A stretch of DNA of 54,548 nucleotides, taken from NCBI GenBank assembly GCA_964413085.1, contig CAYPRI010000002.1, positions 7,373-61,920 of the forward strand, in the 5' to 3' direction. Below, piece by piece: positions 11,785 through 54,517 of the stretch. The position numbers and the translations under genes were made by a program. Within the stretch, counting starts at the first letter, position 1. Every line of letters starts with the position of its first letter. The notes under the pieces are model-generated. The model was not told the origin of the DNA. It did no database searches and saw nothing but the letters and a program-made list of their open reading frames with translations. Source of the stretch: an uncultured Dehalococcoidales bacterium. GTDB taxonomy: Bacteria; Chloroflexota; Dehalococcoidia; GIF9; UBA5629.

Positions 11785-11797
11785 TATACTCCCGAAC

Positions 11798-14825: not shown

Positions 14826-14841
14826 CCATAAAGGAGCAGTT

Positions 14842-15171: not shown

Positions 15172-15214
15172 GTTAAACTCCTCTTCGAAAAATAATAACT
15201 TCGGTCAGGAAAAC

Positions 15215-17459: not shown

Positions 17460-17639
17460 ACCGGTGACTAACTTTAGTTATCCAGTCTATTTTTGTCAAA
17501 CTTGGCTCGCGTATTTAATGACCAAAACGTAGTTTGGCGGTTTATCGGCTGCTGTGCTATATTTCACCCAGACAGACATTTCTCTGTCCGGTTCGCTAAG
17601 CTGAGATAGCAATAGTCTTTGAAGGGAGGGGTAAAAATC

Positions 17640-20156: not shown

Positions 20157-20170
20157 CAAGGCCGTTTAAT

Positions 20171-26143: not shown

Positions 26144-26329
26144 GATAACCAACCATATAACGACGTAATGACAATCTACGAATTATAGGCTTTTTACATA
26201 TGATTTTTCAAAGACTTAGCGTGGCTGTTCTTGACAAAATAAAGCGGAGACGCTAAAGTTCCTAGCCATCTGCGCGGCTTGCAATTTGTAGTCTATTTTC
26301 AGCGGGATTCGATATCTTGGAGTAGTCAG

Positions 26330-34465: not shown

Positions 34466-34684
34466 ATGTGTCTAGCTGTCCCGGTTAAGGTTGTAGCCAT
34501 AGAAGGTAACGAGGCCGATGTGGAAATCGGCGGCGTAAGACGTCGCGTCAGTATAGTGCTGACGCCGGAAGCTAAAGTTGGCGACTACGTCCTGCTCCAC
34601 ACCGGTTATGCCATAAACGTCATCAACGAAGCTGAGGCGCAAGAGACCTTGAAGATTTTGGAAGAGATGGCCAGCTTAGAATGA
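34466..34684 (+). CDS. hypC: hydrogenase assembly chaperone HypC
   Basis: Canonical MCLAVPVKV N-terminus. 72 aa. SD GAGAGGAAG. ATGA overlap with hypD. Confidence 0.9.
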   Translation: MCLAVPVKVVAIEGNEADVEIGGVRRRVSIVLTPEAKVGDYVLLHTGYAINVINEAEAQETLKILEEMASLE

Positions 34685-39800: not shown

Positions 39801-42800
39801 GACTGACCGTTGAAATCACGAGGTAATTCCAGGTCGGCATTGACAATGGTTGTCGCCTCTGGTGAAGCCGCAGATAGTGCCACAGGGTCTTTGACCTCGA
39901 TTCCGGGCAATGCAAAGACCCAGTTTGTAATATCATTAAATGCCGGGGCAAGGTCCCTCACGGCAATGTCGTAGTAGGTCGCATTATCGGTGCAATATAC
40001 AACTGCCAGGGAACCGTCGACAGGATAACTGGGGGAGAACCTCAGCGCCAGTATATCCGCATTGCTGGGAGCCGCCGTCTGAAGCTTCCACGAATTAGAG
40101 CTGGCAGTCTGCAGAACCCAGAGCCGGAAAGCTCCCGGCGCGCCGTCACGTACACCTACGGCCATGTCACTACCATTTCCGTAGTCCTTGGAAATATCGA
40201 TGGCGCCGATAAGAGCTCCTCCCGAAACATCTGAAAAGCTGGTGGATTCCCATGTCGCACCGCCATCCGTTGTCATCCAGACCTCAGCGGGGTCTGACGA
40301 AGCAACCGAACCGGTAACAACGGCTACCGTGTCAGTGTTATCGGGAGCTACGGCCACATCCCAGACGAACTGGTTGGCTTCTGGAGTGCCTGCAGATGTC
40401 ATGGCTGCGTGGAGCGCTGCATCAGGTGTATCGGTCCACACGGTGCCAAGATTCGATGATTTTCTTATCGCTTTGGCTGGCGTATCGACCGCCCATATAG
40501 TAGCCGCGTCTGGGGCCACAGCTATTTTGTTAACCTCTGAAGGCGATATTATTTCCCCTCCAACACTGGGTGTATTTATGGTGTGCCACTGGGTTTCACC
40601 GGGCTCTATCACCGGCGTAGGTGTTGGTCCGACGTCCCAGAACACTCTGACGCCCCTAGCTTTCAGTGCCGGAATATATTCGTCGATGGAAATCTGGCTT
40701 AATGGGTTGCCCATTAGATAAAGGTAATCACCATACGTGAGTCCTATGCCATCAATGAGCGGCTTGATATCTACTATCTGATTATTGTTTACGTCAAGCC
40801 AGGATAGTGTAATCAAGTCGGCAACCGGAGAAATATTACTTATCTGATTATTCGATAAATAGAGATAGGCAAGACTGGTCAGCCCGGACAACGGGGTGAG
40901 GTCGTTTATCTGGTTCGAAACCAGATAAAGGTTTCTCAGGTTTATCAGTCCCGAGATAGGCGTTAGATCGCTAATCTCATTGGAATCTAATCCAAGCTCA
41001 TAGAGATTAATCAGTCCTGCTACAGGAGTTAAGTCGCTTATCTGGTTAGACCCCAACCCCAATGCGGTCAGATTTATCAATCCAGCCAGGGGAGTCACGT
41101 CGCTAATCTGGTTAGAACCCAGCGATAGCCAGCTGAGGTTTGTAAGCCCCGCCAGGGGAGTCAGGTCGCTTATCTGATTTGAACCCAGATCGAGGCTGAT
41201 CAGGTTGGTCAGTCCGCTCAGCGGCGCTAAGCTGCCTATCTGATTGCCGTAAAGATAAAGACTGTGGAGGTTAGTTAAACCTGAAATTCCCGTGAGACTA
41301 CTCACCTGGTTGTATCGCAGATACAATTCGCTTAGGATGGTGAGATTTGCGAGTGGAGTTAGGTCGCTTATCTGATTGGAGTTGAGCCCAATCAAAGTCA
41401 AATTAGTCAGCCCTGCAAGAGGCGTCAGGTCATTTATCTGGTTATTATCAAGATATAACGACTGCAGATTGGACAGTCCAGTCAACGGAGCTAGATTGCT
41501 AATCTGGTTACTGTCCAATTTGAGGCCGGAAAGTTCGGTCAGACCCGATAAAGGACTCAGCTCGCTTATCTGGTTGGAGCTCAGCCCAATCCAGGTCAGG
41601 TTAGTCAGCCCCGACAGAGGAGCCAGATTACTGATCTGGTTATTGCTTAAATCCAGCCCTCCCCAGCCACTGCCTAGTTTAGTTAATCCTGATAAGGGGG
41701 TCAGGTCGCTTATCTGATTGTTATATAAACCGAGCCAGGTCAAATTAATGCAGTATTCCAGCCCGGATAGATTTACGATTCCTCTGCCACCCGCGTTTAG
41801 GTATATCAAAGCCGCAAGCTCGGAAGAATGTATATCACCCGACGGTTTGTCTAAAGTATCCCGTATGGCGGCTTCCAGGTTGGCATCTGGAAAGGTGACC
41901 AACACCGGGTCATCCCAGGCCACAATTACGCCTCTGGCCTGAAGTGCCGGAATATACGTATCGACAGAAGTCTGGCTTAGTGGATTGCCGTTCAACCACA
42001 CGATATCGTCGGTGGCCAGTCCTGAGTTATTTACCAGAGGCTCGATATCGCTTATCTGGTTATCCCGCAGGTCAAGCTGATTAAGGTTAGTGCAATATTC
42101 AAGTCCACTAAGGTTTATTATTCCTCTGTTGGAAGCATTCAAGTTCCACAAATTTGCCAGTTCAGTTGATTTAATAATACCGGTCGGTTTGTTCAAAGCT
42201 TCCCTGACGGCAGCCTCAAGGTTGGCATCGGGGAAATTCACCGCCACACAACCGTCCCAAACCACGTTAACGCCTCTGGCCTGCAACGCCGGAATATATA
42301 CGTTAGCTGAAGTCTGGTTCAATGCATTGCCATTCAACCATACGATGTCATACTCCGCCAGCCCCGGATTATTTACCAGCGGCTGGATATCGCTTATCTC
42401 ATTATTTTCCAGAGACAGCCCAGTTAGGTTAGTCAGGCCCGCCAGAGAAGTCAGGTGGCTTATCTGGTTATTGTTCAAATGTAACCAGACAAGGGTAGTC
42501 ATACCAGCCACTGGTGAAATATCGCTTATCTGGTTATTGCCAAGGTCAAGCCAGAAAAGGTTGCTGAGTCCTGCCAGCAACGAAATATCGCTTATCTGAT
42601 TGAAGTTCAGAGCGAGTTGTTGGAGGTTGGCCAATCCAGCAAGTGGAGCTAACTGGTTGCCTATCTGGTTAGAATTCAGATAGAGGCTCCTCAGGTTTGT
42701 CATTCCCCCGATTAGCGTCAGGTCGCTTATATGGTTAGAGCTGAGGTCCAGCGTTTGGAGACCGGTCAATCCTGTCAACGGAACCAAATTGTTGTCCATT

Positions 42801-44221
42801 AGATTAGAGGCGAGGCCCAGGTACTGCAGGTTTGTCATTCCCGCTAACTGAGATATGTCACTTATCTGGTTATTCCCCAGATCGACTCCATAGAGATTGT
42901 TCAGCCCGGTCAGAGGAGCCAATTGATTGCCTATCTGGTTAGAATTAAGAGACAGCCAGTTGAGATTGGTCAATCCGGCCAAGGGCGATATATCGGTTAT
43001 CTGATTACTATAAAAATTGAGCTGGTTAAGGGATATCAGCCCCGATAAAGGAGTCAAGTCGCTTATTTGATTGTTGCCGGCATCGATTGATTTGAGGCTG
43101 GTCAACCCGGCCAAAGGTGACAAATTGATGATCTGGTTGGAACCAAGACCCAGCCACTGAAGGCTGGGTAGGCCCGCCAATGGGGTGAGGTCGCTTATCT
43201 GGTTATTGTACATATACAGGTTCTGTAGGTTTACTAGGCCAGCCAATGGGGTCAGGTCACTTATCTGGTTAGAGCCAGCATCGAGTTCTACCAGACCGGT
43301 CAGACTGGCTAGAGGAGTCAGGTTGTTTATCTGGTTACCGCCTATACGGAGTATCTGGAGGTTAGTCAGTCCGCTCAATGGCGATAAGTCGCTTATCTGG
43401 TTACTCCACATGGTGAGCGCCTGCAGACTGGTCAAGCCCGCCAGTGTGGTGAGGTCACTGATCTGATTGGAGCCCAGGCCCAGCGACTGGAGATTGACCA
43501 ATCCAGCTAGAGGTGTAATATCATTTATCTGGTTATTGCCCAGCTCCAGTACGGTAAGATTGGTCAGGCCTGACAACGGGGTCAAGTCACTTATCTGATT
43601 AGGGGATAAAGTAAGAAAGGTAAGGCTGGTCAGGCCAGCAATAGCGGACAGGTCGCTTATCTGGTTGGAGCCCAGATAAAGCTGGTCAAGATTGGCCAGT
43701 CCATCCAGGGGGGTCAGATCGCTTATCTGGTTACTGCTCAGATCTACGCGCATAAGACCAATGAGACCGGCCAACGGACTCAGGTCGCTTATCTGGTTAT
43801 TGTAAATAAGCAGCTCGGTCATGTTAATCAATCCTGCTAACGGAGTCAGGTCGTTTATCCGATTACTGCCCAAATTCATAAAGTTGAGGGCGGTGAGCCC
43901 TGCCAACGGGGTCAGGTTGCTGATCCGATTATTGTACAAAGATAGCGAGGTCAGGTTGACACAATATTCGAGTCCAGAAAGGTCCACAATTCCTCTACTA
44001 TCGGCAGAGAAATTGGTCAGTCCGGCAAGCTCGGAAGCATAAATATCGCCGGACGGTTTGCCCAGAGCGTCCCGGATGGCTGCCTCTAGATTGGCATCGG
44101 GAAAGGTGACCACCGTATCCGCCCGAGCCAAGCCCAAAGGCATAGCTAAACCTGCCAGCCCCAGAATTAACAGGAACACCATAACCACGGAGAAGCATTT
44201 CCAGGCTCCCAATTTAGTCAT
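36818..44221 (-). CDS. giant cell-surface protein: signal peptide, three LRR modules, Asp-box beta-propeller region, Fn3-like, Ig-like and CARDB-like domains, C-terminal TM anchor
   Basis: 2467 aa from the ATG at 44221 (SD AAGGGGG 5 nt upstream; the track start at 44239 is 6 codons earlier). There are dozens of 22-residue LxxLxLxxNQISDLxPLAGLTNL repeats. Asp-boxes: TTDGGATWES, SRNNGETWNQ. The CARDB-like segment is VSVNPSQAQAGKPVTILANLTNNGGSSGSYNVVL. The C-terminus is TAATIVIALLLCLVILVYRRRQQWY. Confidence 0.85.
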   Translation of the reverse strand: MTKLGAWKCFSVVMVFLLILGLAGLAMPLGLARADTVVTFPDANLEAAIRDALGKPSGDIYASELAGLTNFSADSRGIVDLSGLEYCVNLTSLSLYNNRISNLTPLAGLTALNFMNLGSNRINDLTPLAGLINMTELLIYNNQISDLSPLAGLIGLMRVDLSSNQISDLTPLDGLANLDQLYLGSNQISDLSAIAGLTSLTFLTLSPNQISDLTPLSGLTNLTVLELGNNQINDITPLAGLVNLQSLGLGSNQISDLTTLAGLTSLQALTMWSNQISDLSPLSGLTNLQILRIGGNQINNLTPLASLTGLVELDAGSNQISDLTPLAGLVNLQNLYMYNNQISDLTPLAGLPSLQWLGLGSNQIINLSPLAGLTSLKSIDAGNNQISDLTPLSGLISLNQLNFYSNQITDISPLAGLTNLNWLSLNSNQIGNQLAPLTGLNNLYGVDLGNNQISDISQLAGMTNLQYLGLASNLMDNNLVPLTGLTGLQTLDLSSNHISDLTLIGGMTNLRSLYLNSNQIGNQLAPLAGLANLQQLALNFNQISDISLLAGLSNLFWLDLGNNQISDISPVAGMTTLVWLHLNNNQISHLTSLAGLTNLTGLSLENNEISDIQPLVNNPGLAEYDIVWLNGNALNQTSANVYIPALQARGVNVVWDGCVAVNFPDANLEAAVREALNKPTGIIKSTELANLWNLNASNRGIINLSGLEYCTNLNQLDLRDNQISDIEPLVNNSGLATDDIVWLNGNPLSQTSVDTYIPALQARGVIVAWDDPVLVTFPDANLEAAIRDTLDKPSGDIHSSELAALIYLNAGGRGIVNLSGLEYCINLTWLGLYNNQISDLTPLSGLTKLGSGWGGLDLSNNQISNLAPLSGLTNLTWIGLSSNQISELSPLSGLTELSGLKLDSNQISNLAPLTGLSNLQSLYLDNNQINDLTPLAGLTNLTLIGLNSNQISDLTPLANLTILSELYLRYNQVSSLTGISGLTNLHSLYLYGNQIGSLAPLSGLTNLISLDLGSNQISDLTPLAGLTNLSWLSLGSNQISDVTPLAGLINLTALGLGSNQISDLTPVAGLINLYELGLDSNEISDLTPISGLINLRNLYLVSNQINDLTPLSGLTSLAYLYLSNNQISNISPVADLITLSWLDVNNNQIVDIKPLIDGIGLTYGDYLYLMGNPLSQISIDEYIPALKARGVRVFWDVGPTPTPVIEPGETQWHTINTPSVGGEIISPSEVNKIAVAPDAATIWAVDTPAKAIRKSSNLGTVWTDTPDAALHAAMTSAGTPEANQFVWDVAVAPDNTDTVAVVTGSVASSDPAEVWMTTDGGATWESTSFSDVSGGALIGAIDISKDYGNGSDMAVGVRDGAPGAFRLWVLQTASSNSWKLQTAAPSNADILALRFSPSYPVDGSLAVVYCTDNATYYDIAVRDLAPAFNDITNWVFALPGIEVKDPVALSAASPEATTIVNADLELPRDFNGQSLRRAYISLNSFGAATKASTARDGIFRIDDSSVYALMDTSGIADKSICSIAYFGNYAAGKLMAGEILGYPCQAAVPTWFTDSPTSYPIPVWYPALKPATGAAAQGNCTAIDKGGYGNAQVAWTTGGWAYCGTSSADFRNGGVNTALGSGRWPSALRTSVALDESALSLSRNNGETWNQIGLIDTRIDKLTDVAPSADSSTVYLASINKADVAGGGCTGFDSVWRSSSNSEVVTPFISAPVGTIWERVFTHNTSFSCADQQTNIALLRTAAYDDKTGELVAWGVYDPGSSLPHGLAAWSPDYGDYWAMLMPRGSIQDFCFESRSTMYFLNSSGMVQKMVYMGVAWSSSFPSIDCGLGAGYSIAAVPEGKVLVGGSTSSSYPVSYSADAAGSFMPINETLNSGNMLVAFDSNFAANGVIYAATQQNPGGSIYRNTLPAFGQWTDLKPLQLGYCGLATSSKGPLYAANPLFVERTLNPAVSIPGDNGEWDALISDLSDFSVRLGLQPNSLKLSEGQTWQATPLYFVDDRDYNPQASAGQLWTYTDCLALATPQSMEVMSITCDPATHRPPMFSLSWMPGCFEKFYELQIAEDADFTTGVWSNPWYQPSDNVSPSLLIPPGGIPAIVENSPGWVGTLPDAVLNVLGITPNMPAIGLEPTISLPPLEPKCGHKYFWRLRAVGSVEGDIIRSPWSATQSFTIGKAPPSVASVASATGTGMVTFSSDIGIITNLTAIAEGTLPTEGKPDGVGFPHGLFAFDITVIDPGATATITITFPSPLPEGVQYWKYQEDIGWYQIPILSHNDNVIIIQLTDGGVGDTDGIANRMIVDPGGPPIQLAILVPNRQSTPSELRTPRRVSPSPAKPQQLPPPDVRLNNVSVNPSQAQAGKPVTILANLTNNGGSSGSYNVVLVVNGRMEQQRTVEVSPGSAYPVRFTVTKSQPGTYNVSVGDKNGSFVILKAGARQDRDPRAGPALTAATIVIALLLCLVILVYRRRQQWY
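40640..44119 (-). repeat. degenerate 66-nt (22-codon) tandem periodicity encoding the LRR arrays, in three modules
   Basis: The core GTC(G/A)CTTATCTGGTT recurs on the + strand about every 66 nt. Conserved cap cassettes (FPDANLEAA(I/V)R...LSGLEYC.NL) lie near 44100, 42240 and 41900. Conserved tails (YIPAL(Q/K)ARGV.V.WD) lie near 42270, 41930 and 40650. Confidence 0.85.
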
Positions 44222-44621
44222 GTCTGCCCCCTTAACCATTATTAATATGTAATATAAAGCGATCAGGTGAGTGCCACAGTTGGCTTGGCTTCGCTCTCTG
44301 TTTTCTGACTTATAAATACAGATACCATTTTGAAAGACGGGAGTTATTCACCGTATGCCGGCCCGCTTTATATGATGGCTGCCCATTATATTCTTATACG
44401 ATTTATGTTGCGATGTTCGAAGTCGAAGAAAGTATACCCTCTACGTTCAAGTGTGTCAATAGGTTTCAAAGCTAATTCCGATTAGAAATACGGCATTGAC
44501 TTCACCCCCCAGTAAAGGATTATTAAACCTAGCCAGCTAAATAGTCGGAAATTGTAGGCTCATTTACGTATAAACCTTTGATTGGGGTTCTTCGTTTCTA
44601 GTTTTGAAAGGAGGTCTCCAC

Positions 44622-44762
44622 ATGCAAGCATACTGTGTTAAGTGCCGCACTAAAAGAGAGATGGGCAATCCCAGGTCCGTCAAGATGAAGAATGGCAAGC
44701 CCGCGACGCAGGGCACCTGCCCCAAATGCGGCACCAGAATGTTCCGGATAGGACAGGGGTAA
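44622..44762 (+). CDS. DUF5679-like zinc-ribbon protein (46 aa)
   Basis: Not in the ORF track. SD GAAAGGAGG lies upstream of the ATG. Translation MQAYCVKCRTKREMGNPRSVKMKNGKPATQGTCPKCGTRMFRIGQG has CxxC...CxxC and the MFRIG tail of that family. Confidence 0.65.
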   Translation: MQAYCVKCRTKREMGNPRSVKMKNGKPATQGTCPKCGTRMFRIGQG

Positions 44763-44787
44763 ATATCCGGGCCGCTGTAAATGACTG

Positions 44788-44824
44788 AAGCTGGGTTTCT
44801 CCAAGATACCCAGCTTCTTGTTTA
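44788..44824 (+). terminator. Rho-independent terminator between convergent genes
   Basis: GAAGCTGGGT (44788-44797) and ACCCAGCTTC (44808-44817) form a 10-bp perfect stem, followed by TTGTTTA. Confidence 0.55.
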
Positions 44825-44848
44825 TGGTCACAATTCTTTACGCATACT

Positions 44849-46951
44849 TCATGCTTCAGGACGGACTTCGTCGACGAGTTCGCAGCGGCCATAAAATCGG
44901 CAGGTATCACGGCCGTTATCCTTGGCCTGGTACATGGCGTTATCCGCATTCTTTAATAAAACTTCAATTTCTTTTCCGTCATCGGGGTAAACTGCAATAC
45001 CTATGCTCGTGGTTATCTTGAGCCGGTGGCCATCGAAAATTAATGGCTCCTGAAACATATCCAGTATTCTTTGTGCCAGCTTGGCGGCATCGTTTGGGCT
45101 GGAAATTTGAGGCAGCACCAGAACGAACTCATCCCCTCCAATGCGCGAAATGGTGTCGCTCTTACGCGTGACGCTGGTGAGCCGCTCAGCAACAGCTTTT
45201 AATAGCTCATCGCCTACGGAGTGTCCCATGGTATCATTGATAACTTTAAATTTGTCCAGGTCAAGCATGAGTACGGCCAGACGGTTACCGCTGCGCCGCG
45301 ACAGCGCCAATCCTATCGTCAGCCGGTCGCTAAGCAAACTCCTGTTGGGCAGGCCAGTTAAAGAGTCATGTGTGGCCATATCTGTCAGTTTTTGCTCGAA
45401 TTGCTTTCGCTGAGTAACGTCGCGGCTGACTGCCCGGAATCCCATAATCTTTCCCGACTTGTCACGCAAAGGCGAAACAGAATTTTCCACGAATATCTGC
45501 GTCCCGTCTTTCCTGACCGTAGCAAAAGGATAAGATTTCAACGGCTGGCCCGTCTTGTAGACTTTATTCCACGCCCTGTACACTCCTTTTACGTCTTCCT
45601 TTGGCACATAAACTCGATAGTTACTTCCAATCAATTCCTGTTCTGTGTAGCCGAACTGGCGGCAAGCTGCCCTGTTAACGAACTTGATATTGCCGGCGAG
45701 GTCCACCTCGTAGTAGCCTTCTTCAATCTCGGCGAGTATCGTCCGGTACCGCTCTTCGGACTGCTTTAAGGCCTCCTCCATCCGAACTCGTTCAGTAACG
45801 TCATGGCTAACTCCACGAAATCCAACTACCTCGCCCTTCTCACTACATAGCGGGAAAGCTGATAGTTCACCCACACCATCGCTGCTATCCTTGCGTATGA
45901 ATTTGAAGGTAAGTGCCCGAATTGGATGACCTGTAACATAAACCTGATTGAAAGCCTCATAAATTCTTTTGTGGTCTTCAGGAGCGGTGGTAACTTTGTG
46001 GTTCATACCGATGAGCTCCTCCGGCGTGTAAGCCACGCTACGGCAGAAGGCATCGTTTACAAAAGTATAATGTCCTCCCAGGTCAACCTCAAAATAGTCG
46101 TCGTGCGTTTCGTCCATGATAGTCCTGAATCTTTCTTCCGACCGTCTTAACGTTTCCTCCATCCGCATGCGTTCGGTAATATCTCGGCCGACTGCACAAA
46201 ATCCGATTATTTGCCCTTCTTGATTTCGCCGAGCCCGAACTGACAGTTCAGCGATTTCTGTGGTACCATCTTTTCTTAAAAGATGATAAGAAAGGCCTTT
46301 GAGTGGCTTACCCGTCTGGTAGACAGTATGGAAGTCACTATACATGGCATTGGCATCTTCCTCAGCCACAACAACCCGATAGTTCATACCCGTCAGTTCC
46401 TCTTGGGAATATCTTAAAGCCCGGCACATTGCATCATTGACGAAAGTAAAACTACCATCGAGCCCGGTTTCTAAATAGGTATCCTCCATCTCCTCCACCA
46501 TCATCCGGTATCTCTCCGCCGACTTCGCCAGGGCCTGTTCCGCCTGTTTCCGTTCCGTGATGTCCATGAAGCTGCCCACAGCTGACCGCTTGCCCCCATA
46601 CTCAATAGACGTTAGCCTTTCCAGAACCCAGATTATTCCGCCGTCTTTCCTAATAAATCGGTACTCATAGGGAAATGAACGGCCTGCTTTCAGGCTCTCG
46701 ATTGCCTGCTTCCGGACAACCTCCCTATCGTCTGGATGTACCAGGTCGAGGGCATAAAGGCCCAGCAGCTCTGACTCCGTGTAGCCGGTTAATTCCAGAA
46801 ACAGCGAGTTGATGTAGTAAAATCTTCCATCCTGGATAATATATATTCCGGTGCCGGCGCACCGAATTAGAGCTTGCGCCAGCTCTTCAGAACCATTCAC
46901 TCTGGCCTTGTTTTGTTTAACCATGTTTCTCATCTCTGAATGACTCAACAA
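44849..46951 (-). CDS. multi-PAS diguanylate cyclase (GGDEF)
   Basis: About four PAS/PAC units (repeated RSEERFR / QSEERYR linkers and DITER/DVTER boundaries). The C-terminal GGDEF domain has RIGGDEFVLVL. The exact start is uncertain: TTG 46951, ATG 46933 or ATG 46924. Confidence 0.85.
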   Translation of the reverse strand: MLSHSEMRNMVKQNKARVNGSEELAQALIRCAGTGIYIIQDGRFYYINSLFLELTGYTESELLGLYALDLVHPDDREVVRKQAIESLKAGRSFPYEYRFIRKDGGIIWVLERLTSIEYGGKRSAVGSFMDITERKQAEQALAKSAERYRMMVEEMEDTYLETGLDGSFTFVNDAMCRALRYSQEELTGMNYRVVVAEEDANAMYSDFHTVYQTGKPLKGLSYHLLRKDGTTEIAELSVRARRNQEGQIIGFCAVGRDITERMRMEETLRRSEERFRTIMDETHDDYFEVDLGGHYTFVNDAFCRSVAYTPEELIGMNHKVTTAPEDHKRIYEAFNQVYVTGHPIRALTFKFIRKDSSDGVGELSAFPLCSEKGEVVGFRGVSHDVTERVRMEEALKQSEERYRTILAEIEEGYYEVDLAGNIKFVNRAACRQFGYTEQELIGSNYRVYVPKEDVKGVYRAWNKVYKTGQPLKSYPFATVRKDGTQIFVENSVSPLRDKSGKIMGFRAVSRDVTQRKQFEQKLTDMATHDSLTGLPNRSLLSDRLTIGLALSRRSGNRLAVLMLDLDKFKVINDTMGHSVGDELLKAVAERLTSVTRKSDTISRIGGDEFVLVLPQISSPNDAAKLAQRILDMFQEPLIFDGHRLKITTSIGIAVYPDDGKEIEVLLKNADNAMYQAKDNGRDTCRFYGRCELVDEVRPEA

Positions 46952-47208
46952 TCTTTACGTAAGTTATCGCTAAATTAACTTAACTTAGTATATAGACCGA
47001 TACAGTCTCAAGTGAATAGCCCATAGGTAATTTTATGTCTGGCAAATTGGTACCTGGTACTGCGGGTAATTGAACAAACGATGCCGCCTGAATTTCACAA
47101 TTTTGTAACTTTTAATTCCGCAATTTGATGACTTTTTAATCTTGAACCTGATACTATTGACATAATAGTCATACTCATACAAACAGGTGACAGATGAGGA
47201 GAGTTCAG

Positions 47209-49059
47209 GTGAAAAAAATATTGTTTCTACTTATGATAATATTCCTTCTCGGTGCTGGCTGCGTGCCGACTCCACCTACCGTTGTTAGCTTCAGCGTCAG
47301 CCCTTCGACCATTACAGCGGGGCAGTTAGCTACGCTGACCTGGGCCGTAAATAACGCCAGTTTGGTAAAAATAAACCCTTTTTCCGGCAACCAGTATCCA
47401 AGCGGTAGCACCGTTGTATCGCCGCCTGCCACTACAACCTATGTTTTAATTGCTTCAAATGCGTTTGGCTCTATAACGGCAACAGCCTTGCTTACTGTAA
47501 ACATACCTGCCGAAACAAGCCCCAACGAGGGAGTGGCGCCTTCTTCCGCCGAACCGACCATAAATAGTCTCACGGTTGCTCCATCATCTATTAACATGGG
47601 CGACTCAGCAACGCTTCAATGGGACGTCACCGGCGCCACCTCAGTATTCATCGAGCCTGATATAGGCTATGTGCCGCTATCGGGAAACCAGCTTGTTTCT
47701 CCATCGTACACTACCGACTACGTGCTGACAGCCAGCAACGCGAATAATACGGTTACTTCATCAGCGACGTTAACCATCAATCCATATATACCTTACAGTC
47801 CATCTTACCCGGTTCCTTATCCATCAGCGCCGTTGGGCGCACTGCCTCTCATCAATTTTTTCGATATCAACCCGCCGGTCATTAATGCTGGCAGCTCGGC
47901 AACCATTCAGTGGGATGTCGGCAACGCAGATAATGTCTTCATAGACAACGGCATCGGTGATGTGCCTCTATCGAGCAGTATGACAATAACTCCCTCAGCT
48001 ACAACTGCTTACACAATCACGGCGTCGAACATATATGGCTCGGCTACTTCACTGGCAACCGTTGTAGTTAATCCACCGGCCGGTGCGGCCGCCATACTAA
48101 CCTTCTCGGCTACTCCGAGCAATATAACTGCGGGTAACTCTTCGACATTTCAGTGGAATGTTATCGGAGCCACTTCAGTCTCTATCAATCAGGGCATAGG
48201 CGCCGTGCCATTATCGGGAACAAAATCGGTATCGCCTAACGTTACGACGACATATACGTTGACGGCGATGAACGGTGCTGGCTCAGTTATGGCTTCCACT
48301 ACGGTAAATGTGGCTCCGCCAGCCGGGACACCTTTTATTATCAGTTTCACTTCAAACCCGAGCAGCATAACTGCCGGGCACTCCTCACTGCTGCAGTGGA
48401 CTGTAGCCGGTGCTACCTCGGTTTCCATCGATCAGGGCATCGGCGTTGTACCACTATCCGGAAGCCGATTGGTATCACCTGTTGCCAACACCGTATATAC
48501 CTTAACGGCAACAAATAGTTCGGGCTCCGTTAGCGCTTCGACCGCAGTAACCATAACCCAGTCCACTGCGCTGCCGGTAATACTGCGCTTCTCTGTATAT
48601 CCCACCAGCATTGTCCCTGGCGGTTTTGCCACACTACAGTGGCAGGTAGGCGGAGCCACGTCCGTTTCCATAGACCAGGGCGTAGGTGCCGTAGCCCCGG
48701 ATGGAGAACTTAAGGTGTCCCCGGCATATACAAAGACATATACCTTGACGGCCACGAATGACTCCGGCTCTGCTACCGCCTCCGTTACCGTGACTGTAAT
48801 TACGGTTACGGGCCGGCCATTTATTAACCTGTTCTCCGCCAGCCCGACCGTCATTCCATTTGGTGGGAAAACCACTCTCAAATGGCAGGTTACCGGAGCT
48901 ACTTCAATTACCATCACTCCGGGCGTCGGCACGGTGTCCGACTCGGGTACCAAGCAAGTCAGCCCAGACCGGACGACAGCCTATATACTTACCGCCCGAA
49001 ACAGTGCCGGCGTCACCACGCATACGGCTCTGGTCACGGTGACCTTTGAACCAAAATAG
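47209..49059 (+). CDS. lipoprotein with seven tandem Ig-like (about 90-aa) domains
   Basis: The GTG at 47209 (SD GAGGAG 7 nt upstream) gives MKKILFLLMIIFLLGAGC, a lipobox L-G-A-G-C. There are seven repeats of the pattern (S/A)TLQW.V.GATSV.I..GIG.VP.SG...VSP..TT.YTLTA.N..GS. Confidence 0.75.
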   Translation: MKKILFLLMIIFLLGAGCVPTPPTVVSFSVSPSTITAGQLATLTWAVNNASLVKINPFSGNQYPSGSTVVSPPATTTYVLIASNAFGSITATALLTVNIPAETSPNEGVAPSSAEPTINSLTVAPSSINMGDSATLQWDVTGATSVFIEPDIGYVPLSGNQLVSPSYTTDYVLTASNANNTVTSSATLTINPYIPYSPSYPVPYPSAPLGALPLINFFDINPPVINAGSSATIQWDVGNADNVFIDNGIGDVPLSSSMTITPSATTAYTITASNIYGSATSLATVVVNPPAGAAAILTFSATPSNITAGNSSTFQWNVIGATSVSINQGIGAVPLSGTKSVSPNVTTTYTLTAMNGAGSVMASTTVNVAPPAGTPFIISFTSNPSSITAGHSSLLQWTVAGATSVSIDQGIGVVPLSGSRLVSPVANTVYTLTATNSSGSVSASTAVTITQSTALPVILRFSVYPTSIVPGGFATLQWQVGGATSVSIDQGVGAVAPDGELKVSPAYTKTYTLTATNDSGSATASVTVTVITVTGRPFINLFSASPTVIPFGGKTTLKWQVTGATSITITPGVGTVSDSGTKQVSPDRTTAYILTARNSAGVTTHTALVTVTFEPK

Positions 49060-49100
49060 GTCTAAATATAAGCCGCCGGTAATCCCCGTTCTCTGCCTAT

Positions 49101-49129
49101 TTGCACAAATTGCCATAAACGTGTAAAAT
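49101..49129 (+). promoter_or_regulatory. putative sigma-70-type promoter for the hydrogenase block
   Basis: TTGCAC (49101-49106), a 17-nt spacer, then TAAAAT (49124-49129). It is about 58 nt upstream of the 49187 ATG. Confidence 0.35.
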
Positions 49130-49186: not shown

Positions 49187-50083
49187 ATGCCTAAGGCAAA
49201 CGTTCAAGAAATTCCGATTGTCTGGATACAGGCGGGAACCTGCACCGGATGTTCGGTATCAGTCCTCAATTCTGTCAGCCCAACCATCAAAAATGTCCTC
49301 ATCGACGATGTCGTCCCCGGAAAACATGTTAACCTCAAATTCCAGGCAACCGTAATGGCCGGCGAAGGCGATGCCGTCATTCAGGTGCTGGAAAATGTTC
49401 CGAAAACGAATAAAGGCGGCTATGTGCTGGTTGTCGAAGGCGCCGTTCCCACTAAAGACGGCGGTGCTTATGGTTCGCTGGGCGAGAAAAATGACAAGCC
49501 TGTACCTATGGCGGAACGCGTCGAAGCCCTGGCCAAAGACGCCATGGCAATCTTGGCTCTCGGCACCTGCGCTACCTTCGGCGGCATTGCTGCCGGCAAG
49601 CCCAATCCCGGGGGATACATGGGTGTCGACAAATTTCTCAAATCCCGCAACATAGACAAACCGCTGATTAATATCCCCGGTTGCCCACCCCACCCGGACT
49701 GGTTTATCGGAAGCGTCGCCTCCGTGCTCCTCTTCGGCTTACCCAAGCCCCGGGAACTGGACGAGCTAAAACGTCCCAAGGTTTTCTATGGGAATCTAAT
49801 CCACGAGAACTGCCCGCGAAGAGCTTACTTCGATGAAGGCAAATTCGCTAAAAGATTCGGCGAGCCCGGCTGCCTCAACGAGCTGGGGTGCAAAGGGCCG
49901 GTGACGCATGCGGATTGCCCGATTAGACTGTGGAACCACGGCACGAGCTGGTGTATCGGGGCTGGGTCGCCCTGCATCGGCTGCTGCGAGCCGGGATTCC
50001 CAGATTTGGTGGCACCCTTCTATAAGAAATTAGACGATGCCAATATGCCCATGATAGGTAAATTGCCGGGAAAGGAGAAATAA
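49187..50083 (+). CDS. [NiFe]-hydrogenase small subunit, no Tat signal peptide
   Basis: The ATG at 49187 (SD AAAGGGGG) gives MPKANVQEIPIVWIQAGTCTGCSVS. Proximal cluster motifs: GTCATFGG, PGCPPHP. Medial and distal motifs: HENCPRR, GCLNELGCKGP, CPIRLWN, WCIGAGSPCIGCCEPGF. No RRxF motif occurs even in the longest ORF, which starts at 49172. Confidence 0.9.
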   Translation: MPKANVQEIPIVWIQAGTCTGCSVSVLNSVSPTIKNVLIDDVVPGKHVNLKFQATVMAGEGDAVIQVLENVPKTNKGGYVLVVEGAVPTKDGGAYGSLGEKNDKPVPMAERVEALAKDAMAILALGTCATFGGIAAGKPNPGGYMGVDKFLKSRNIDKPLINIPGCPPHPDWFIGSVASVLLFGLPKPRELDELKRPKVFYGNLIHENCPRRAYFDEGKFAKRFGEPGCLNELGCKGPVTHADCPIRLWNHGTSWCIGAGSPCIGCCEPGFPDLVAPFYKKLDDANMPMIGKLPGKEK

Positions 50084-50086
50084 AAG

Positions 50087-51646
50087 TTGAGCAAGATTGT
50101 TGTCGACCCCATTACCCGGATTGAAGGACACCTCAAAATTGAAGTTACTACCGAGAACGGTGTGGTTAAAGATGCGCACAGTTCAGGCATGATGTTTAGG
50201 GGCATTGAACTGATACTGAAAGGCAGAGACCCGCGCGATGCGCAAAGATACACGCAGCGTATTTGCGGTGTCTGCCCTACCAGTCATTCCATAGCCTCGA
50301 CTCTAAACCTGGATAGTGCTTTTGGCATATCAGACAAGATACCTGATAATGGCCGAATTGTTCGCAATCTGATTCTCGGTGCAGCTCACATCGCCGACCA
50401 CATCCTTCACTTTTATCACCTGGCCGCTCTCGACTATGTCGATGTTACCAAGGTAGCGGGATATACCGGCAATGACCCCGCTCTGAACTCGATAAAGGCA
50501 TTCATCCAGAGGGGCGAGCTGGCCCCATTCGTCCCCCGTTATGAGGGCGATTACCGGCTTAGCGACCAAGTAAACATAGCAGCCACAGCCAACTACGTAA
50601 AAGCCCTGGAAATGAGGCGCAAGGCTCAGGAGATGCTGGTTGTTTTTGGTGGCAAAATGCCTCACAACATGGCAGTTATGCCCGGCGGCGTCACCGAAAC
50701 AGTCACCGTCGATAAAATAGCCTCTTTCTTGTGGAGGCTCAATGAACTGAGGGATTTCATCGATAATGTTTATATCCCCGACGTATTAGCGGTGGCCGCA
50801 GCTTATCCCGATTATTTCGAAATCGGCGCCGGCTGTGGAAACCTGCTGTCTTATGGGAGCTTCGACCTCGAAAGCACAAATCCGGACTATACTAAAAGGA
50901 AGAGACTGTTAAAGCAGGGGACGGTTTCAACTGTCCTCAAGCTCGGCCCCGTGGATACCAACAAAATTCTGGAGTATGTCAAACACTCCTGGTACGCGGA
51001 CTCAAGTACAGGAAAGCATCCCTCACACGGAGTGACGGAGCCTCAGCACGATAAGAAGAGTGCTTACTCCTGGGCTAAAGCCCCCCGTTACGATGGAAAA
51101 GTCTACGAGGTCGGCCCCCTGGCCCGTGTAGTGGCTACTTATGCCAGCGGTGAACCCACGGTAAAAAAGCTGGTTGATTCCGTGCTTTCTCAGTTCAAAG
51201 CCAGTCCCAAGGCACTTTTCTCAGTACTCGGCCGCCATGCTGCCCGAGCTCTTTATACTAAATTTGTAGCCGACTCCATGCCCGGATGGCTACTCCAGTT
51301 GAAACCCGGTGAACCCGCTTACATAGATTATCAGATACCCGATGAGTCTTCCGGAATGGGATTGGTCGATGCCGCCAGAGGCGCCCTGGGCCACTGGGTT
51401 GAGATAAAAGACAAGAAAATCGCCAACTACCAGTGCGTGGTCCCGAGTACCTGGAATTTGGGCCCTCGAGATGATAAAGGGCAGCCGGGTCCCGTGGAGC
51501 AGGCGCTTATCGGAACCAAGATAAAGGACGAAAGCAATCCTTATGAGATCGGACGCATCGTTCGCTCCTTCGACCCCTGCCTTGCTTGCGCCATCCATGT
51601 CATTACGCCAAAAGGACGAACTCTTGGAATATACAAAGTCAGTTAA
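50087..51646 (+). CDS. [NiFe]-hydrogenase large subunit
   Basis: TTG start with SD AAGGAG. RIEGH, the N-terminal ligand motif RICGVCPTSH, and the C-terminal motif DPCLACAIH followed by a 15-aa cleavable extension (VITPKGRTLGIYKVS). The motifs are group 1/2-like rather than group 3 (DPCxSC). Confidence 0.9.
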   Translation: MSKIVVDPITRIEGHLKIEVTTENGVVKDAHSSGMMFRGIELILKGRDPRDAQRYTQRICGVCPTSHSIASTLNLDSAFGISDKIPDNGRIVRNLILGAAHIADHILHFYHLAALDYVDVTKVAGYTGNDPALNSIKAFIQRGELAPFVPRYEGDYRLSDQVNIAATANYVKALEMRRKAQEMLVVFGGKMPHNMAVMPGGVTETVTVDKIASFLWRLNELRDFIDNVYIPDVLAVAAAYPDYFEIGAGCGNLLSYGSFDLESTNPDYTKRKRLLKQGTVSTVLKLGPVDTNKILEYVKHSWYADSSTGKHPSHGVTEPQHDKKSAYSWAKAPRYDGKVYEVGPLARVVATYASGEPTVKKLVDSVLSQFKASPKALFSVLGRHAARALYTKFVADSMPGWLLQLKPGEPAYIDYQIPDESSGMGLVDAARGALGHWVEIKDKKIANYQCVVPSTWNLGPRDDKGQPGPVEQALIGTKIKDESNPYEIGRIVRSFDPCLACAIHVITPKGRTLGIYKVS

Positions 51647-52142
51647 TAATGAAACACGTAGCTGTACTGCGAGAATCTCAGTTCTAGGAGTCGGTAACCT
51701 GTTGCTTAAAGACGAGGGTATAGGCGTTCATCTGGTCCAAAAATTGGCCGAGGTTACAAATGATTCTAATATCAACATAGTCGATGCCGGCACCTGCCCT
51801 GACTTTTTATCATTGGTAGAAGATAATTTAGACAAACTAATCATAGTTGATGCCGTTAGAAACGGAGACACGCCGGGAACCATTTACCGGTTTGACTTCG
51901 ATGTGGTAGATCTGGAGGGCGCGCCGCCCTTCTCCATCCACGACGTCGGAGTAGTGGACAGCTTAAGAACCATGGCTTTATTCAATAAACAGCCGAAGTC
52001 TACAATCGTTATCGGCATCGAGCCCGAGACAATCGACTTCGGTCTCGAGCTTTCACCGGCAGTTAAAGAGAAACTACCCAAAATTATCGATTTAGTTCTC
52101 AAGGAGATCGAGGAAACCACAGCTATGGAGGTAGACAAATGA
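51624..52142 (+). CDS. hydrogenase maturation endopeptidase (HybD/HoxM-like); start uncertain
   Basis: ISVLGVGNLLLKDEGIGVHLV is the canonical N-terminal region, and IVDAV follows. No ATG or GTG exists in frame. The nearest in-frame start is TTG at 51624 (SD AAAGGA 7 nt upstream), overlapping the large-subunit gene by 23 nt. Confidence 0.7.
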   Translation: MEYTKSVNNETRSCTARISVLGVGNLLLKDEGIGVHLVQKLAEVTNDSNINIVDAGTCPDFLSLVEDNLDKLIIVDAVRNGDTPGTIYRFDFDVVDLEGAPPFSIHDVGVVDSLRTMALFNKQPKSTIVIGIEPETIDFGLELSPAVKEKLPKIIDLVLKEIEETTAMEVDK

Positions 52143-52825
52143 TAATATCTGAATTGAAGCCCTTTCTGGAAATTATTGGCTATTTAGAAAAGGATAAGAA
52201 AGTATTTATAGTCGGCTGCAAGGGTTGTGCCGAGGTCTGCCAGACCGGCGACGAACCGCAGGTGCTCGATATGATGCGCAAGCTGGAGCAGGAAGGCAAG
52301 ACCGTCACCGGCCACTGTGTGGTCGATTTCCTGTGCGATAAAGCACTGATTAAGACCAGGTTGTTTCCCCACGAGGATGAGATAAATGCCGCAGATTCAC
52401 TGCTGGTTATGACCTGCGGCATCGGGGTCCAGGCCACGGCCGCGGTGGTAAATAAGCTGGTACATCCCGCGGCCAACACGGTCAATGTAGGCGGCGTGGG
52501 CGGGACCTGGAGGGGCAGCGAGCGCTGCCGGGAATGTGGCGACTGTGTCCTTGACCTGACCGGCGGAATTTGCCCCTTAACCGCCTGCACCAAATGGCTG
52601 ATCAACGGGCCATGTGGCGGCGCCAAGAACGGCAGATGCGAGGTTGAGCCGGACGTGCGTGATTGTGGCTGGCACCTGATTTACGAAAGATTGAAGAAAC
52701 TGGGGCAGCTGGACAAGATGCGGACGGTGGCGCCACAGGTCAAGAACTATGCCAGGATGCAGCCGCCGAAGACGCTCAGGTCCAGCATCATGTGGGCGCT
52801 GGAGCATCAGGAAACAAAGGTCTAG
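52139..52825 (+). CDS. metV: MetV-like protein (methylene-THF reductase C-terminal-domain / Cys-rich FeS-Zn subunit)
   Basis: 228 aa. CRECGDCVLDLTGGICPLTACTKWLINGPCGG...GRCEV....CGW matches the MTHFR_C/MetV signature. There is an ATGA overlap with the protease stop. SD GGAGGT lies upstream. Confidence 0.8.
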   Translation: MIISELKPFLEIIGYLEKDKKVFIVGCKGCAEVCQTGDEPQVLDMMRKLEQEGKTVTGHCVVDFLCDKALIKTRLFPHEDEINAADSLLVMTCGIGVQATAAVVNKLVHPAANTVNVGGVGGTWRGSERCRECGDCVLDLTGGICPLTACTKWLINGPCGGAKNGRCEVEPDVRDCGWHLIYERLKKLGQLDKMRTVAPQVKNYARMQPPKTLRSSIMWALEHQETKV

Positions 52826-52851
52826 CTATTCTTGAAGGAGGAAAAACAGAG

Positions 52852-53718
52852 ATGAGTCTGCGTGAAAAACTTCAGAACGGCAAGTTCGTAGTCACCGCTG
52901 AAATCGGTCCAGCCAAGGGCGTGGATATACACGAGTTTAATGAAAATGCTGACTTGCTTAAAAATAGAGTGGATGCAGTCAACTGCACCGACCAGCAGAG
53001 CGCCGTCATGAGATTGGGGTCGCTGGCCGCCTGCCATTTGCTGAAGCAAAAAGGCGTCGAGCCGGTGTTCCAGATGACCTGCCGCGACCGGAACCGGATA
53101 GCACTGCAGTCGGACTTACTTAATGCCTATGTCATGGGCATAGAAAACGTTCTGTGCCTCACCGGTGACTACGTCACGCTGGGAGACCATCCCGACGCCA
53201 GACCGGTATTCGACCTGGATTCTGTTTCGTTGTTATATGCAGCCCGGCAATTGGAGGCAGGCAAAGACCTGGCTGGCAAAGAATTGAAAGGTAATCCCAA
53301 GTTTTTCCTTGGCGCCTGCGTCACGCCGTGCGCCGACCCGGTTGAACCGCAGCTAATTAAGATGGAGAGGAAGGTAAAGGCGGGGGCGCAGTTCTTCCAG
53401 ACCCAGGCCGTCTATGAACCCAAAGCTTTCGAAGCCTTTATGAAAGAAGCCAAAAAATTCGGCGTGCCGGTTCTGGTGGGCATCGTGGTGCTGAGGTCTG
53501 CTGGTATGGCCAAGTTTATGAATAAGAACGTCGCCGGTATACATGTCCCCGATGACCTTATCGATGAGATGGACAAAGCCGAAAACAAGTTGCAGAAGGG
53601 CATTGAGATAGCCGCCCGTCTCATAGATGAGATGAAGGGCATGTGCCAGGGCACTCACATAATGGCTATCGGCCTGGAATCAAAGGTCCCCGCGATTCTC
53701 GACGCCGCCAAGCTGTAG
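52852..53718 (+). CDS. metF: methylenetetrahydrofolate reductase, acetogen MetF type
   Basis: The ATG at 52852 (SD GAAGGAGG) gives MSLREKLQNGKFVVTAEIGPAKG...QMTCRDRNRIALQSDLL...FFQTQAVYE...CQGTHIMAIG, closely matching the Moorella-type MetF pattern. The track ORF's upstream extension overlaps metV and is rejected. Confidence 0.85.
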   Translation: MSLREKLQNGKFVVTAEIGPAKGVDIHEFNENADLLKNRVDAVNCTDQQSAVMRLGSLAACHLLKQKGVEPVFQMTCRDRNRIALQSDLLNAYVMGIENVLCLTGDYVTLGDHPDARPVFDLDSVSLLYAARQLEAGKDLAGKELKGNPKFFLGACVTPCADPVEPQLIKMERKVKAGAQFFQTQAVYEPKAFEAFMKEAKKFGVPVLVGIVVLRSAGMAKFMNKNVAGIHVPDDLIDEMDKAENKLQKGIEIAARLIDEMKGMCQGTHIMAIGLESKVPAILDAAKL

Positions 53719-53737
53719 AAGTAAAATAAAGGCAGAG

Positions 53738-54517
53738 ATGCGAATAGTACGCTTTTCTGCTGGCGGTAGGGCCAAATACGGCATATTAGCCGGCAATGTC
53801 ATACGCGGAATATACGGCAATACTTGCTCGCATCTCGGCCATTTAAACAGCCCGTCCATACTGGACGGCAGCAAATTCTCTCTTAATGATATCCGCCTGC
53901 TTTCGCCGTGCAGGCCTTCCAAGATAGTCTGTCTAGGACTGAACTACCGCAGCCATATCGAGGAGATGAAGTTGCCCATGCCTTCGGTGCCGCTCATCTT
54001 CCTCAAGCCGTCAACGGCAGTTATCGGTCCTGAGGATAAAATCGTTCTGCCCCAGGGCTGGCAGCGCATCGACTACGAAGGCGAGCTGGGCGTGGTCATC
54101 GGCAAAAAGGCCAAAAATATTTCGGAGGAAAAGGCCAGGGAATATGTGCTTGGCTACACCTGTGTCAACGACGTTTCGGACCGCCATGCCCAGGCGGCTG
54201 ACGGACAGTGGACCAGGGCCAAAGGCTACGACACCTTCGCTCCAATAGGCCCCTGGATAGAGACCGAAGTCGAGCCGGACAATCTGAAACTTGAAACGTA
54301 TCTTAATGGTGAGCTGCGCCAGTCGGCATCCACCAGCGATCTGCTTTTCGGTATACCCAAGCTCATCAATTTCATCTCCGGTGTCATGACGCTGCTACCC
54401 GGCGACGTCATCGCCACAGGCACACCGTCGGGCGTAGGGCCCATGAACCCCGGGGATATAATTGAAATAAAAATAGAGAAAATCGGTGCGCTGAAAAATT
54501 TCGTCGTCGCTCCCTGA
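53738..54517 (+). CDS. fumarylacetoacetate hydrolase (FAH) family protein
   Basis: 259 aa. IVCLGLNY, EGELGVVIGKKA and CVNDVSDR are typical of FAH / 2-keto-4-pentenoate hydratase-like enzymes. It starts 19 nt after the metF stop. Confidence 0.85.
   Translation: MRIVRFSAGGRAKYGILAGNVIRGIYGNTCSHLGHLNSPSILDGSKFSLNDIRLLSPCRPSKIVCLGLNYRSHIEEMKLPMPSVPLIFLKPSTAVIGPEDKIVLPQGWQRIDYEGELGVVIGKKAKNISEEKAREYVLGYTCVNDVSDRHAQAADGQWTRAKGYDTFAPIGPWIETEVEPDNLKLETYLNGELRQSASTSDLLFGIPKLINFISGVMTLLPGDVIATGTPSGVGPMNPGDIIEIKIEKIGALKNFVVAP

Follow-up and report, generated by a model that had tools for sequence, protein, structure and literature searches.

A Tat-less [NiFe]-hydrogenase encoded head to tail with MetV and MetF in an uncultured Dehalococcoidales bacterium: a candidate H2:methylene-tetrahydrofolate oxidoreductase

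Which electron donor serves the MetVF-type methylene-tetrahydrofolate reductases is the question raised by a locus in a stretch of 54,548 nucleotides (nt) from an uncultured Dehalococcoidales bacterium (contig CAYPRI010000002.1, positions 7,373 to 61,920; the whole stretch is called the window here, and unlabelled positions refer to it). A review of methylene-tetrahydrofolate reductases (MTHFR) recognises types I-IV only and leaves the electron donor of the MetVF enzymes unresolved (PMC8760232). In the window, six co-directional genes occupy positions 49187-54517 of the + strand, and the first five, lying head to tail from 49187 to 53718, encode in order a [NiFe]-hydrogenase small subunit, its large subunit, a maturation protease, MetV and MetF. 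These five genes probably specify a soluble cytoplasmic oxidoreductase that passes electrons from H2 to methylene-tetrahydrofolate (methylene-THF). The open reading frame (ORF) listing and the Pfam and NCBIfam searches agree on the following genes.

49187 to 50083, + strand: [NiFe]-hydrogenase small subunit, 298 amino acids (aa); PF01058 and PF14720
50087 to 51646, + strand: [NiFe]-hydrogenase large subunit, 519 aa; PF00374 (E=4e-164) and NF033181
51624 to 52142 (start uncertain), + strand: maturation endopeptidase of the HycI/HybD family; PF01750 and TIGR00072 (132 bits)
52139 to 52825, + strand: MetV, 228 aa, Cys-rich iron-sulfur (FeS)/Zn subunit of MetVF-type methylene-THF reductase; PF12225
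52852 to 53718, + strand: MetF, 288 aa, catalytic flavoprotein subunit of methylene-THF reductase; PF02219 over the whole length
53738 to 54517, + strand: fumarylacetoacetate-hydrolase (FAH)-family gene; PF01557

An initial annotation of this DNA had described six genes packed with almost no space between them, and the ORF listing together with a reading of the DNA bears out the gene positions and the gaps. The small-subunit gene ends in TAA and the TTG start of the large-subunit gene follows after 3 nt. The annotation's overlap of large-subunit and protease genes, conditional on a protease start at TTG 51624, is plausible, AAGGA lying 8 nt upstream of that codon and the overlap amounting to 23 nt; ATG 51597 is a possible alternative start. 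At 52139-52142 the protease stop and the metV start share ATGA, with GGAGG 6-7 nt before it. The gap between metV and metF is 26 nt and contains GAAGGAGGA, the Shine-Dalgarno sequence of metF itself, and that between metF and the FAH gene is 19 nt. The terminator scan found no site in any junction of the block, as the annotation had also read it; one weak terminator-like site lies inside metV (52309-52325), and the total count is below that of shuffled sequence. No riboswitch or other RNA was matched by Rfam near the operon, the sole match in the window being a tRNA-Met. The block may form a single transcript with translational coupling. A consensus scan yielded one candidate operon promoter, about 58 nt before the small-subunit start.

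49100 to 49129, + strand: promoter-like site TTTGCA-18-TAAAAT

The scan of the region gave 9 sites against 4.4 +/- 2.3 in shuffles, which is weak evidence. Two other gene calls were set aside. The public call for the protease gene, at TTG 51702, is too short and loses the conserved ISVLGVGN motif aligned by TIGR00072, and a TTG-started ORF of 351 aa (52663-53718) is the metF frame extended upstream over metV, the start that bears a Shine-Dalgarno sequence being ATG 52852.

To which class does the hydrogenase belong? The large subunit carries both of the ligand motifs earlier described as group 1/2-type, RICGVCPTSH (Cys60/Cys63) and DPCLACAIH (Cys498/Cys501/His504), with Cys60, Cys63, Cys498 and Cys501 as Ni ligands, and its similarities point to group 1. 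With 728 bits the subunit passes the 600-bit threshold of the equivalog model NF033181, and in the PDB it is matched best by group 1b/1a Desulfovibrio enzymes (465-478 bits, residues 3-504). The group 2a enzyme Huc reaches 208 (large) and 133 (small) bits as against 478 and 255 for group 1, and similarity to groups 3a, 3c and 3d is confined to the N-terminus of the large subunit. Classification, which the initial annotation had left as a check, places the enzyme closest to group 1a/1b by PDB and NCBIfam similarity plus a rough neighbour-joining (NJ) tree. A group 3c, Mvh-type assignment was rejected; only the N-terminal ~118 residues match MvhA (113 bits), and the VhuA model gives 103 bits where 800 are required.

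Mature PDB chains stop at query residue 504, so that a C-terminal extension of 15 aa lies beyond His504. This extension and the adjacent endopeptidase gene suggest normal C-terminal processing and therefore argue against a sensory enzyme, the class that the annotation had named as contrary to its reading; sensory group 2b hydrogenases have neither the extension nor a dedicated protease. An H2 sensor controlling metVF or Wood-Ljungdahl expression could still be imagined from the loci, deltaproteobacterial, from Anaerolineae and in part from Chloroflexota, in which a cyclic nucleotide monophosphate (cNMP)-binding histidine kinase is interleaved between metV and metF and a receiver protein follows metF. 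It is very improbable, given the affinity to group 1a/1b and not group 2 and the absence of kinase and regulator from the window and most loci; moreover, the same pair (phoBR) flanks metF in the Hdr-linked cluster of DscP3, where there is no hydrogenase (PMC5736913). The receiver is a single-domain response regulator at L048 (10059-12790), and the arrangement recurs at L044, L049, L051, L058, L060, L062, L064, L066, L067 and L069.

The small subunit of a group 1 enzyme of this kind would be expected to carry a twin-arginine translocation (Tat) signal, and here it begins directly at the mature sequence, as first annotated. An in-frame TAG at 49157, 30 nt before the ATG, leaves room for at most 9 upstream codons; the alignment to the hydA model begins at model position 47, and that to the best PDB match, Desulfomicrobium baculatum 1cc1_S (255 bits), begins from mature residue 6. 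The protein is also without a C-terminal membrane anchor. All cluster Cys/His positions align with those of the Dm. baculatum [NiFeSe] small subunit, and because of this the proximal, medial and distal FeS clusters are expected in the [NiFeSe]-type Cys pattern; the annotated full three-cluster subunit agrees with this alignment. The absence of the signal extends to the clade defined below, since neither a twin-arginine motif (RRxF) nor room for one was found in any of the 72 clade small subunits examined. Small subunits of the clade (L005-L085; window 50020-50083) share a C-terminal tail, FPDxxxPxYxKxxxxx(L/M)PxIG, which reaches ~19 residues farther than the chain in the Dm. baculatum crystal structure and may serve to dock MetV. 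On the MetV side, F23, A31, K54, D63, H109 and W124 are clade-specific candidates for such an interface.

The linkage of this hydrogenase to metV was followed by scanning one genome per GTDB species. This gave 339 relatives, from which the best 80, with large subunits 69-95% identical, were kept; the six window proteins were compared with these 80 loci by tblastn, and the 71 loci with at least 1.3 kb of contig past the large subunit were taken as informative. The cluster includes metV in every one of the 71: in 67 it lies directly downstream in the same orientation and in four directly upstream of the small subunit, and metF is present in 61 of the 62 loci with enough sequence. Protease and metV are spaced by a median of -4 nt (30 nt or less in 59 of 61), metV and metF by a median of 25 nt, and large subunit and metV, where no protease gene lies between them, by a median of 20 nt. 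In the reverse look-up, three homologues of MetV were followed on long contigs (70-75% identity), and each of them stands behind a small subunit, a large subunit and HycI. Neither the window block nor any of the 80 loci contains a partner gene of the periplasmic kinds (cytochrome b, cytochrome c3 or HybA-type); for the window block, the lack of cytochrome b and HybA-like genes had already been reported.

Carriers are mostly Dehalococcoidia, with Anaerolineae and with metagenome-assembled genomes (MAGs) labelled deltaproteobacterial, Syntrophobacteraceae, Syntrophaceae, Thermodesulfobacteriota, Thermodesulfovibrionales and Actinomycetota. Several of those outside Dehalococcoidia sit on contigs of 0.6-6 Mb, and a binning artefact is therefore unlikely for them. 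Close homologues of the large subunit number in the hundreds, and uncultured Dehalococcoidia or Chloroflexota are the source of all of them. Flanking genes show no relation from one lineage to another: on a 581-kb contig, a homologue with 83% identity belongs to the same set of five genes, with wholly different flanks and no FAH gene. The synteny, proposed initially as a check, is thus kept in every informative relative, across several phyla and amid unrelated flanks. The FAH gene follows metF only in closer relatives (large-subunit identity of at least ~83%, plus L086), other genes standing there elsewhere. The six-gene block of the annotation accordingly holds as six ORFs and not as a conserved unit, which comprises five genes with FAH as a lineage-specific addition; FAH was rejected as part of the module and is maybe co-transcribed. 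An identical large subunit occurs on four Joint Genome Institute (JGI) contigs, where the block goes on with thyA and a methyltransferase gene. In the parent contig (L001 14555-15890) FAH is likewise followed by thymidylate synthase ThyA and then a class I methyltransferase. ThyA consumes methylene-THF.

Relatives outside the clade indicate what the loss of the Tat signal accompanied. An exhaustive search of 50%-identity representatives, with contexts looked up, found the nearest at 50-63% large-subunit identity, and the representatives tested all belong to NF033181. Those with informative contexts or N-termini are as follows.

P0316, 63% identity: large subunit, HycI, small subunit (384 aa, RREFLQ Tat motif, C-terminal transmembrane helix), then a HybA-like poly-ferredoxin
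L103, 60% identity: small subunit with RRKFLQ Tat motif
P0319, 58% identity: cytochrome b in context
P0320, 51% identity: cytochrome b in context
P0322, 50% identity: cytochrome c3 genes on its flanks

Tat signals are present in both of the outside N-termini read (L091, L103), and other outside small subunits measure 336-369 aa, a length that would accommodate a signal peptide. In the NJ tree 12 diverse MetVF-linked large subunits are monophyletic with 94% bootstrap and are nested among Tat-bearing periplasmic types. Tat loss and MetV linkage go together. A second Tat-less lineage, P0318 (52% identity), has a 277-aa small subunit starting right at the folD stop, in the order fchA(FTCD_C)-folD-small subunit-large subunit-protease-metV (L093 2462-6418, L094, L099, L100 1-1679); its contigs end before any metF position. 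This lineage falls outside the main clade in the rough NJ tree, and for this reason the same switch may have happened twice.

The metV gene adjoins the structural genes of the hydrogenase, at the place where related periplasmic operons encode the electron acceptor, whether cytochrome b, cytochrome c3 or HybA-like. PF12225 spans MetV residues 110-201, and PF02219 spans MetF residues 3-286. About 11 of the 13 MetV Cys positions are conserved among 72 hydrogenase-adjacent MetVs and 26 second copies from the same loci. Hydrogenase-adjacent MetVs share a median of 59% identity among themselves as against ~40% to the second copies, and pairwise identities of the large subunit and of the adjacent MetV correlate (Spearman 0.69), which suggests that the two are co-inherited. 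Neither in the window block nor in its 10-kb flanks are there genes for RnfC2 or for HdrABC plus MvhD, the input modules of known MetVF systems.

A different account of the same synteny is co-regulation only, in which the Tat-less hydrogenase reduces a diffusible carrier such as ferredoxin or flavodoxin, feeding MetVF and other enzymes, and the gene order reflects co-expression with the Wood-Ljungdahl pathway. Type II MetVF does accept reduced ferredoxin in vitro (PMC8760232), and the module has as neighbours other pathway genes whose products are not believed to assemble into a single complex. The adjacency, however, is specific to metV, includes stop/start overlaps and survives the change of all other neighbours, while other pathway genes come and go around the module. 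Relatives encode a direct redox partner in the same operon, and transfer from H2 to ferredoxin is endergonic at environmental H2. We regard this account as unlikely. Ferredoxin as the donor gives a negative ATP balance on H2 + CO2 (PMC8760232).

How might a direct transfer proceed? In the preferred reading, the Tat-less group 1a/1b-type hydrogenase would oxidise H2 in the cytoplasm, and the proximal, medial and distal clusters of its small subunit would hand electrons to the FeS centres of MetV. MetV would act as an electron adaptor between the distal cluster and MetF, passing electrons to the MetF flavin, and MetF would reduce methylene-THF to methyl-THF. We infer that hydrogenase and MetVF are physically joined, that the reaction runs towards methyl-THF and that electrons are not bifurcated. 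The initial annotation had proposed a direct wiring of H2 oxidation to methylene-THF reduction, and this gains support from the conserved synteny, the non-sensory class, the association of Tat loss with MetV, the frequent position of the module inside Wood-Ljungdahl clusters and the adaptor-like behaviour of MetV beside other input modules. The evidence for THF as the MetVF substrate is the Wood-Ljungdahl gene context.

The standard potentials E0' are -414 mV for H+/H2 and -200 mV for methylene/methyl-THF, from which Delta G0' is calculated at about -41 kJ/mol. At 1 Pa H2 the calculation gives about -266 mV for the H+/H2 couple and about -13 kJ/mol for the reaction. The reaction would thus be exergonic and probably not energy-conserving in itself; it would draw electrons straight from H2 for the one step of the pathway that remains favourable when ambient H2 is low. 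On these figures the energy to spare for bifurcation or ion pumping would be small at environmental H2.

The energetics bear on two further explanations. The same complex could bifurcate electrons on the model of MvhADG-HdrABC, two H2 being oxidised, methylene-THF reduction driving ferredoxin reduction and Rnf/Ech conserving the energy. This would recover the ~ -41 kJ/mol otherwise wasted, and acetogen models need an MTHFR that does not consume ferredoxin and preferably bifurcates (PMC8760232); HdrA/GltD-like or NuoEF-like genes also occur near some loci. Those genes, however, go with the second pair of metVF genes, neither the window nor most Dehalococcoidia loci contain them, and the conserved core is without a bifurcating flavoprotein of the HdrA, NuoF or EtfAB type, its sole flavin site being in MetF. 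Purified MetVF showed no bifurcation with the donors tested (PMC8760232), and the energy available at 1 Pa H2 is too little for ferredoxin reduction. Bifurcation therefore seems improbable to us.

Alternatively, the module may run in reverse, oxidising methyl-THF and evolving H2 for acetate or methyl oxidation in syntrophs and sulfate reducers, the H2 being used by partners or by a periplasmic hydrogenase. Carriers labelled Syntrophobacteraceae, Syntrophaceae and Thermodesulfovibrionales belong to groups that include oxidative pathway users, and [NiFeSe]-like enzymes are good H2 producers. With standard potentials, the reverse reaction is calculated to need H2 near 0.006 Pa, the equilibrium with a -200 mV couple and far under typical syntrophic or sulfidogenic thresholds, and for this reason uptake is the likely direction. 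The relatives of the enzyme are uptake hydrogenases, and methyl-THF oxidation is a recognised bottleneck thought to need energy input (PMC10689502). The chance that the module works in this sense is small.

Several observations weigh against direct H2-driven methylene-THF reduction by the five-gene module. Energy conservation is what acetogen bioenergetics usually looks for at the most exergonic step of the pathway, and direct coupling forgoes it. Many loci hold a second metVF pair, its MetV ~40% identical, and because these second pairs have other partners in many genomes the hydrogenase module may be conditional rather than the main route. The AlphaFold model of MetV has a pLDDT (predicted local distance difference test) of 73.6 and is confident only for the N-terminal Rossmann-like domain; Foldseek of the model against the PDB returned generic alpha/beta matches only and no informative structural neighbour, and a PDB sequence search found none related to MetV. 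The patterns of the locus scan were peptides from the query, the best 80 of 339 matches were kept, and more distant members entered only via a few representatives. Every carrier found is an uncultured MAG or metagenome contig, and a homologue search from the Thermodesulfobacteriota large subunit likewise gave MAG proteins only, with no cultured carrier. Finally, downstream of the block the contig of the window itself continues with FAH, thyA and methyltransferase genes and no acs.

In many lineages the module stands inside Wood-Ljungdahl clusters, with fhs, folD, acs/CODH (carbon monoxide dehydrogenase) and formate dehydrogenase genes. Four arrangements illustrate this.

L070 type: acsD, NuoE-like, NuoF-like, cooC, the module, DUF3786, then a 1366-aa formate-dehydrogenase fusion
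L073 type: fhs, sometimes folD, then the module
L076: folD, then the module
L086: hypFCDE, the module, FAH, a response regulator, acsE/acsCD-like genes and CODH

The large fusion of the L070 type (12371-16471; also L061, L083, L085), ~1366 aa long, joins 2Fe-2S, GltD-like flavoprotein and molybdopterin formate-dehydrogenase-like domains and lies just past metF and the DUF3786 gene.

The second metVF pairs adjoin NADH-type or Hdr/MvhD-type input modules, and on these grounds MetV behaves as an adaptor for interchangeable modules feeding MetF, the hydrogenase being one of them. Their neighbours are of three kinds.

NuoG-N/NuoE/NuoF-like genes
a ~1400-aa HdrA/GltD-like fusion
a 698-aa GltD-like/ferredoxin/MvhD/MetV fusion

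At L033 (11657-16947) and L036 NuoG-N-terminal-like, NuoE-like and NuoF-like genes come directly after the module, and beyond them lie a second metV and a second metF with a histidine kinase gene between the two; this looks like H2-type and NADH-type MTHFR in tandem. The 698-aa fusion at L034 (9032-11128; also L043) combines a GltD-like NAD(P)H oxidoreductase, a 2x[4Fe-4S] ferredoxin, MvhD/FlpD and MetV, an MTHFR input module and its adaptor in one polypeptide; a histidine kinase and a second metF come after it.

Set beside known systems, the window hydrogenase is most like the group 1a/1b periplasmic uptake enzymes (Desulfovibrio/Desulfomicrobium Hys/Hyn, Dehalococcoides Hup type, NF033181). 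Both subunits are full-length homologous, and L1/L2 motifs, three-cluster [NiFeSe]-type small subunit, C-terminal extension, HybD/HycI-type protease and nearby hyp genes are shared. The window clade differs in having no Tat signal, no membrane anchor and no cytochrome c3, cytochrome b or HybA, with MetV-MetF instead, and the window enzyme has Cys at the active site where [NiFeSe] enzymes have selenocysteine. From MetVF types II-IV (MetVF alone; MetVF-RnfC2; MetVF-HdrABC-MvhD) the locus keeps the metF-metV adjacency, the MetV Cys residues and, in many carriers, the Wood-Ljungdahl context, whereas its input module is a heterodimeric [NiFe]-hydrogenase and not RnfC2 or HdrABC-MvhD. MvhADG-HdrABC (group 3c) is comparable as a cytoplasmic [NiFe]-hydrogenase docked to a reductase via an FeS adaptor, an arrangement proposed here from the genes; the window core, however, is without MvhD or HdrA, and its large subunit matches Mvh only N-terminally. 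The hydrogen-dependent carbon dioxide reductase (HDCR) of Acetobacterium woodii and Thermoanaerobacter kivui offers an analogy in principle, with a hydrogenase wired via FeS subunits to a C1-reducing Wood-Ljungdahl enzyme and no diffusible carrier. HDCR, however, has an [FeFe]-hydrogenase and a formate dehydrogenase, acts on CO2/formate and has no sequence kinship to MetVF, so that the resemblance is functional only.

Published arrangements are of other kinds. In Sporomusa ovata H2-dependent methylene-THF reduction is membrane-mediated through Hdr/MvhD (PMC9430772), and marine Chloroflexi have Hdr-linked clusters (PMC5736913). Papers on marine and aquifer Chloroflexi, on Acetothermia and Actinobacteria of serpentinising systems, on anaerobic methanotrophic archaea (ANME) and on Sporomusa describe Hdr/MvhD-linked or membrane-mediated arrangements only. 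No description of a [NiFe]-hydrogenase-metVF operon was found in the full-text literature; subscription-only literature lay outside the search and may hold an earlier mention. MetVF as a partner for a group 1 hydrogenase, and a hydrogenase as input module for MetVF, would both appear to be new. According to Hug et al., the Chloroflexi hydrogenases of group 1 'lack a canonical electron partner' (PMC3971608).

We lean, if narrowly, towards the broader view that these loci represent a fifth MTHFR class, a soluble [NiFe]-hydrogenase:MetVF complex reducing methylene-THF with H2. Such a class would have arisen from a periplasmic uptake hydrogenase that lost its Tat signal and exchanged cytochrome or HybA for MetV, maybe twice (in the main and the fchA-folD-linked clades), would occur widely among uncultured subsurface Dehalococcoidia and among Desulfobacterota-type and Nitrospirota-type MAGs, and would supply the missing partner of the 'orphan' group 1 hydrogenases of fermentative and acetogenic Chloroflexota. 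With the donor module written into the operon, the locus bears on the open question of the MetVF donor as a defined five-gene system. If the proposal is true, the group 1a/1b hydrogenases, periplasmic in all other cases, have a cytoplasmic branch, and the missing electron partner of the Chloroflexota enzymes is explained. At ~1 Pa H2 this would be the only step of the pathway still directly H2-driven, which bears on H2/CO2 use by the abundant subsurface Dehalococcoidia. By analogy with HDCR, the enzyme is also a possible biocatalyst for H2-driven C1 reduction.

Genes for the [NiFe] cofactor maturation of the hydrogenase are present within the window, ~12 kb upstream of the small-subunit gene; in many relatives hypFCDE directly adjoin that gene.

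32152 to 34455, + strand: hypF (Pfam HypF domain)
34466 to 34684, + strand: hypC (MCLAVP N-terminus)
34681 to 35766, + strand: hypD (Pfam HypD domain)
35766 to 36773, + strand: hypE (Pfam AIRS domains)

The interval between hypE and the small-subunit gene (36818-49059) holds a 2473-aa leucine-rich-repeat surface protein (36818-44239, - strand), a 46-aa DUF5679 ORF (~44622-44762, + strand), a 700-aa multi-PAS/GGDEF-type signalling protein (44849-46951, - strand) and a 621-aa Ig-like-repeat protein (47194-49059, + strand). Farther upstream, 10051-30427 contains genes of a fermentative anaerobe, including a bifunctional AdhE (27767-30427) and a glycyl-radical enzyme with its activase (17619-21193), and also glycerol kinase and glycerol-3-phosphate dehydrogenase (10051-13297), a B12-binding radical SAM protein (13389-14825) and PlsX (26279-27328). 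G+C content is 0.53-0.56 over 10001-16000 and ~0.47 on either side, and the tRNA-Met (9941-10015, - strand) stands at the edge of this segment, which may be an island boundary.

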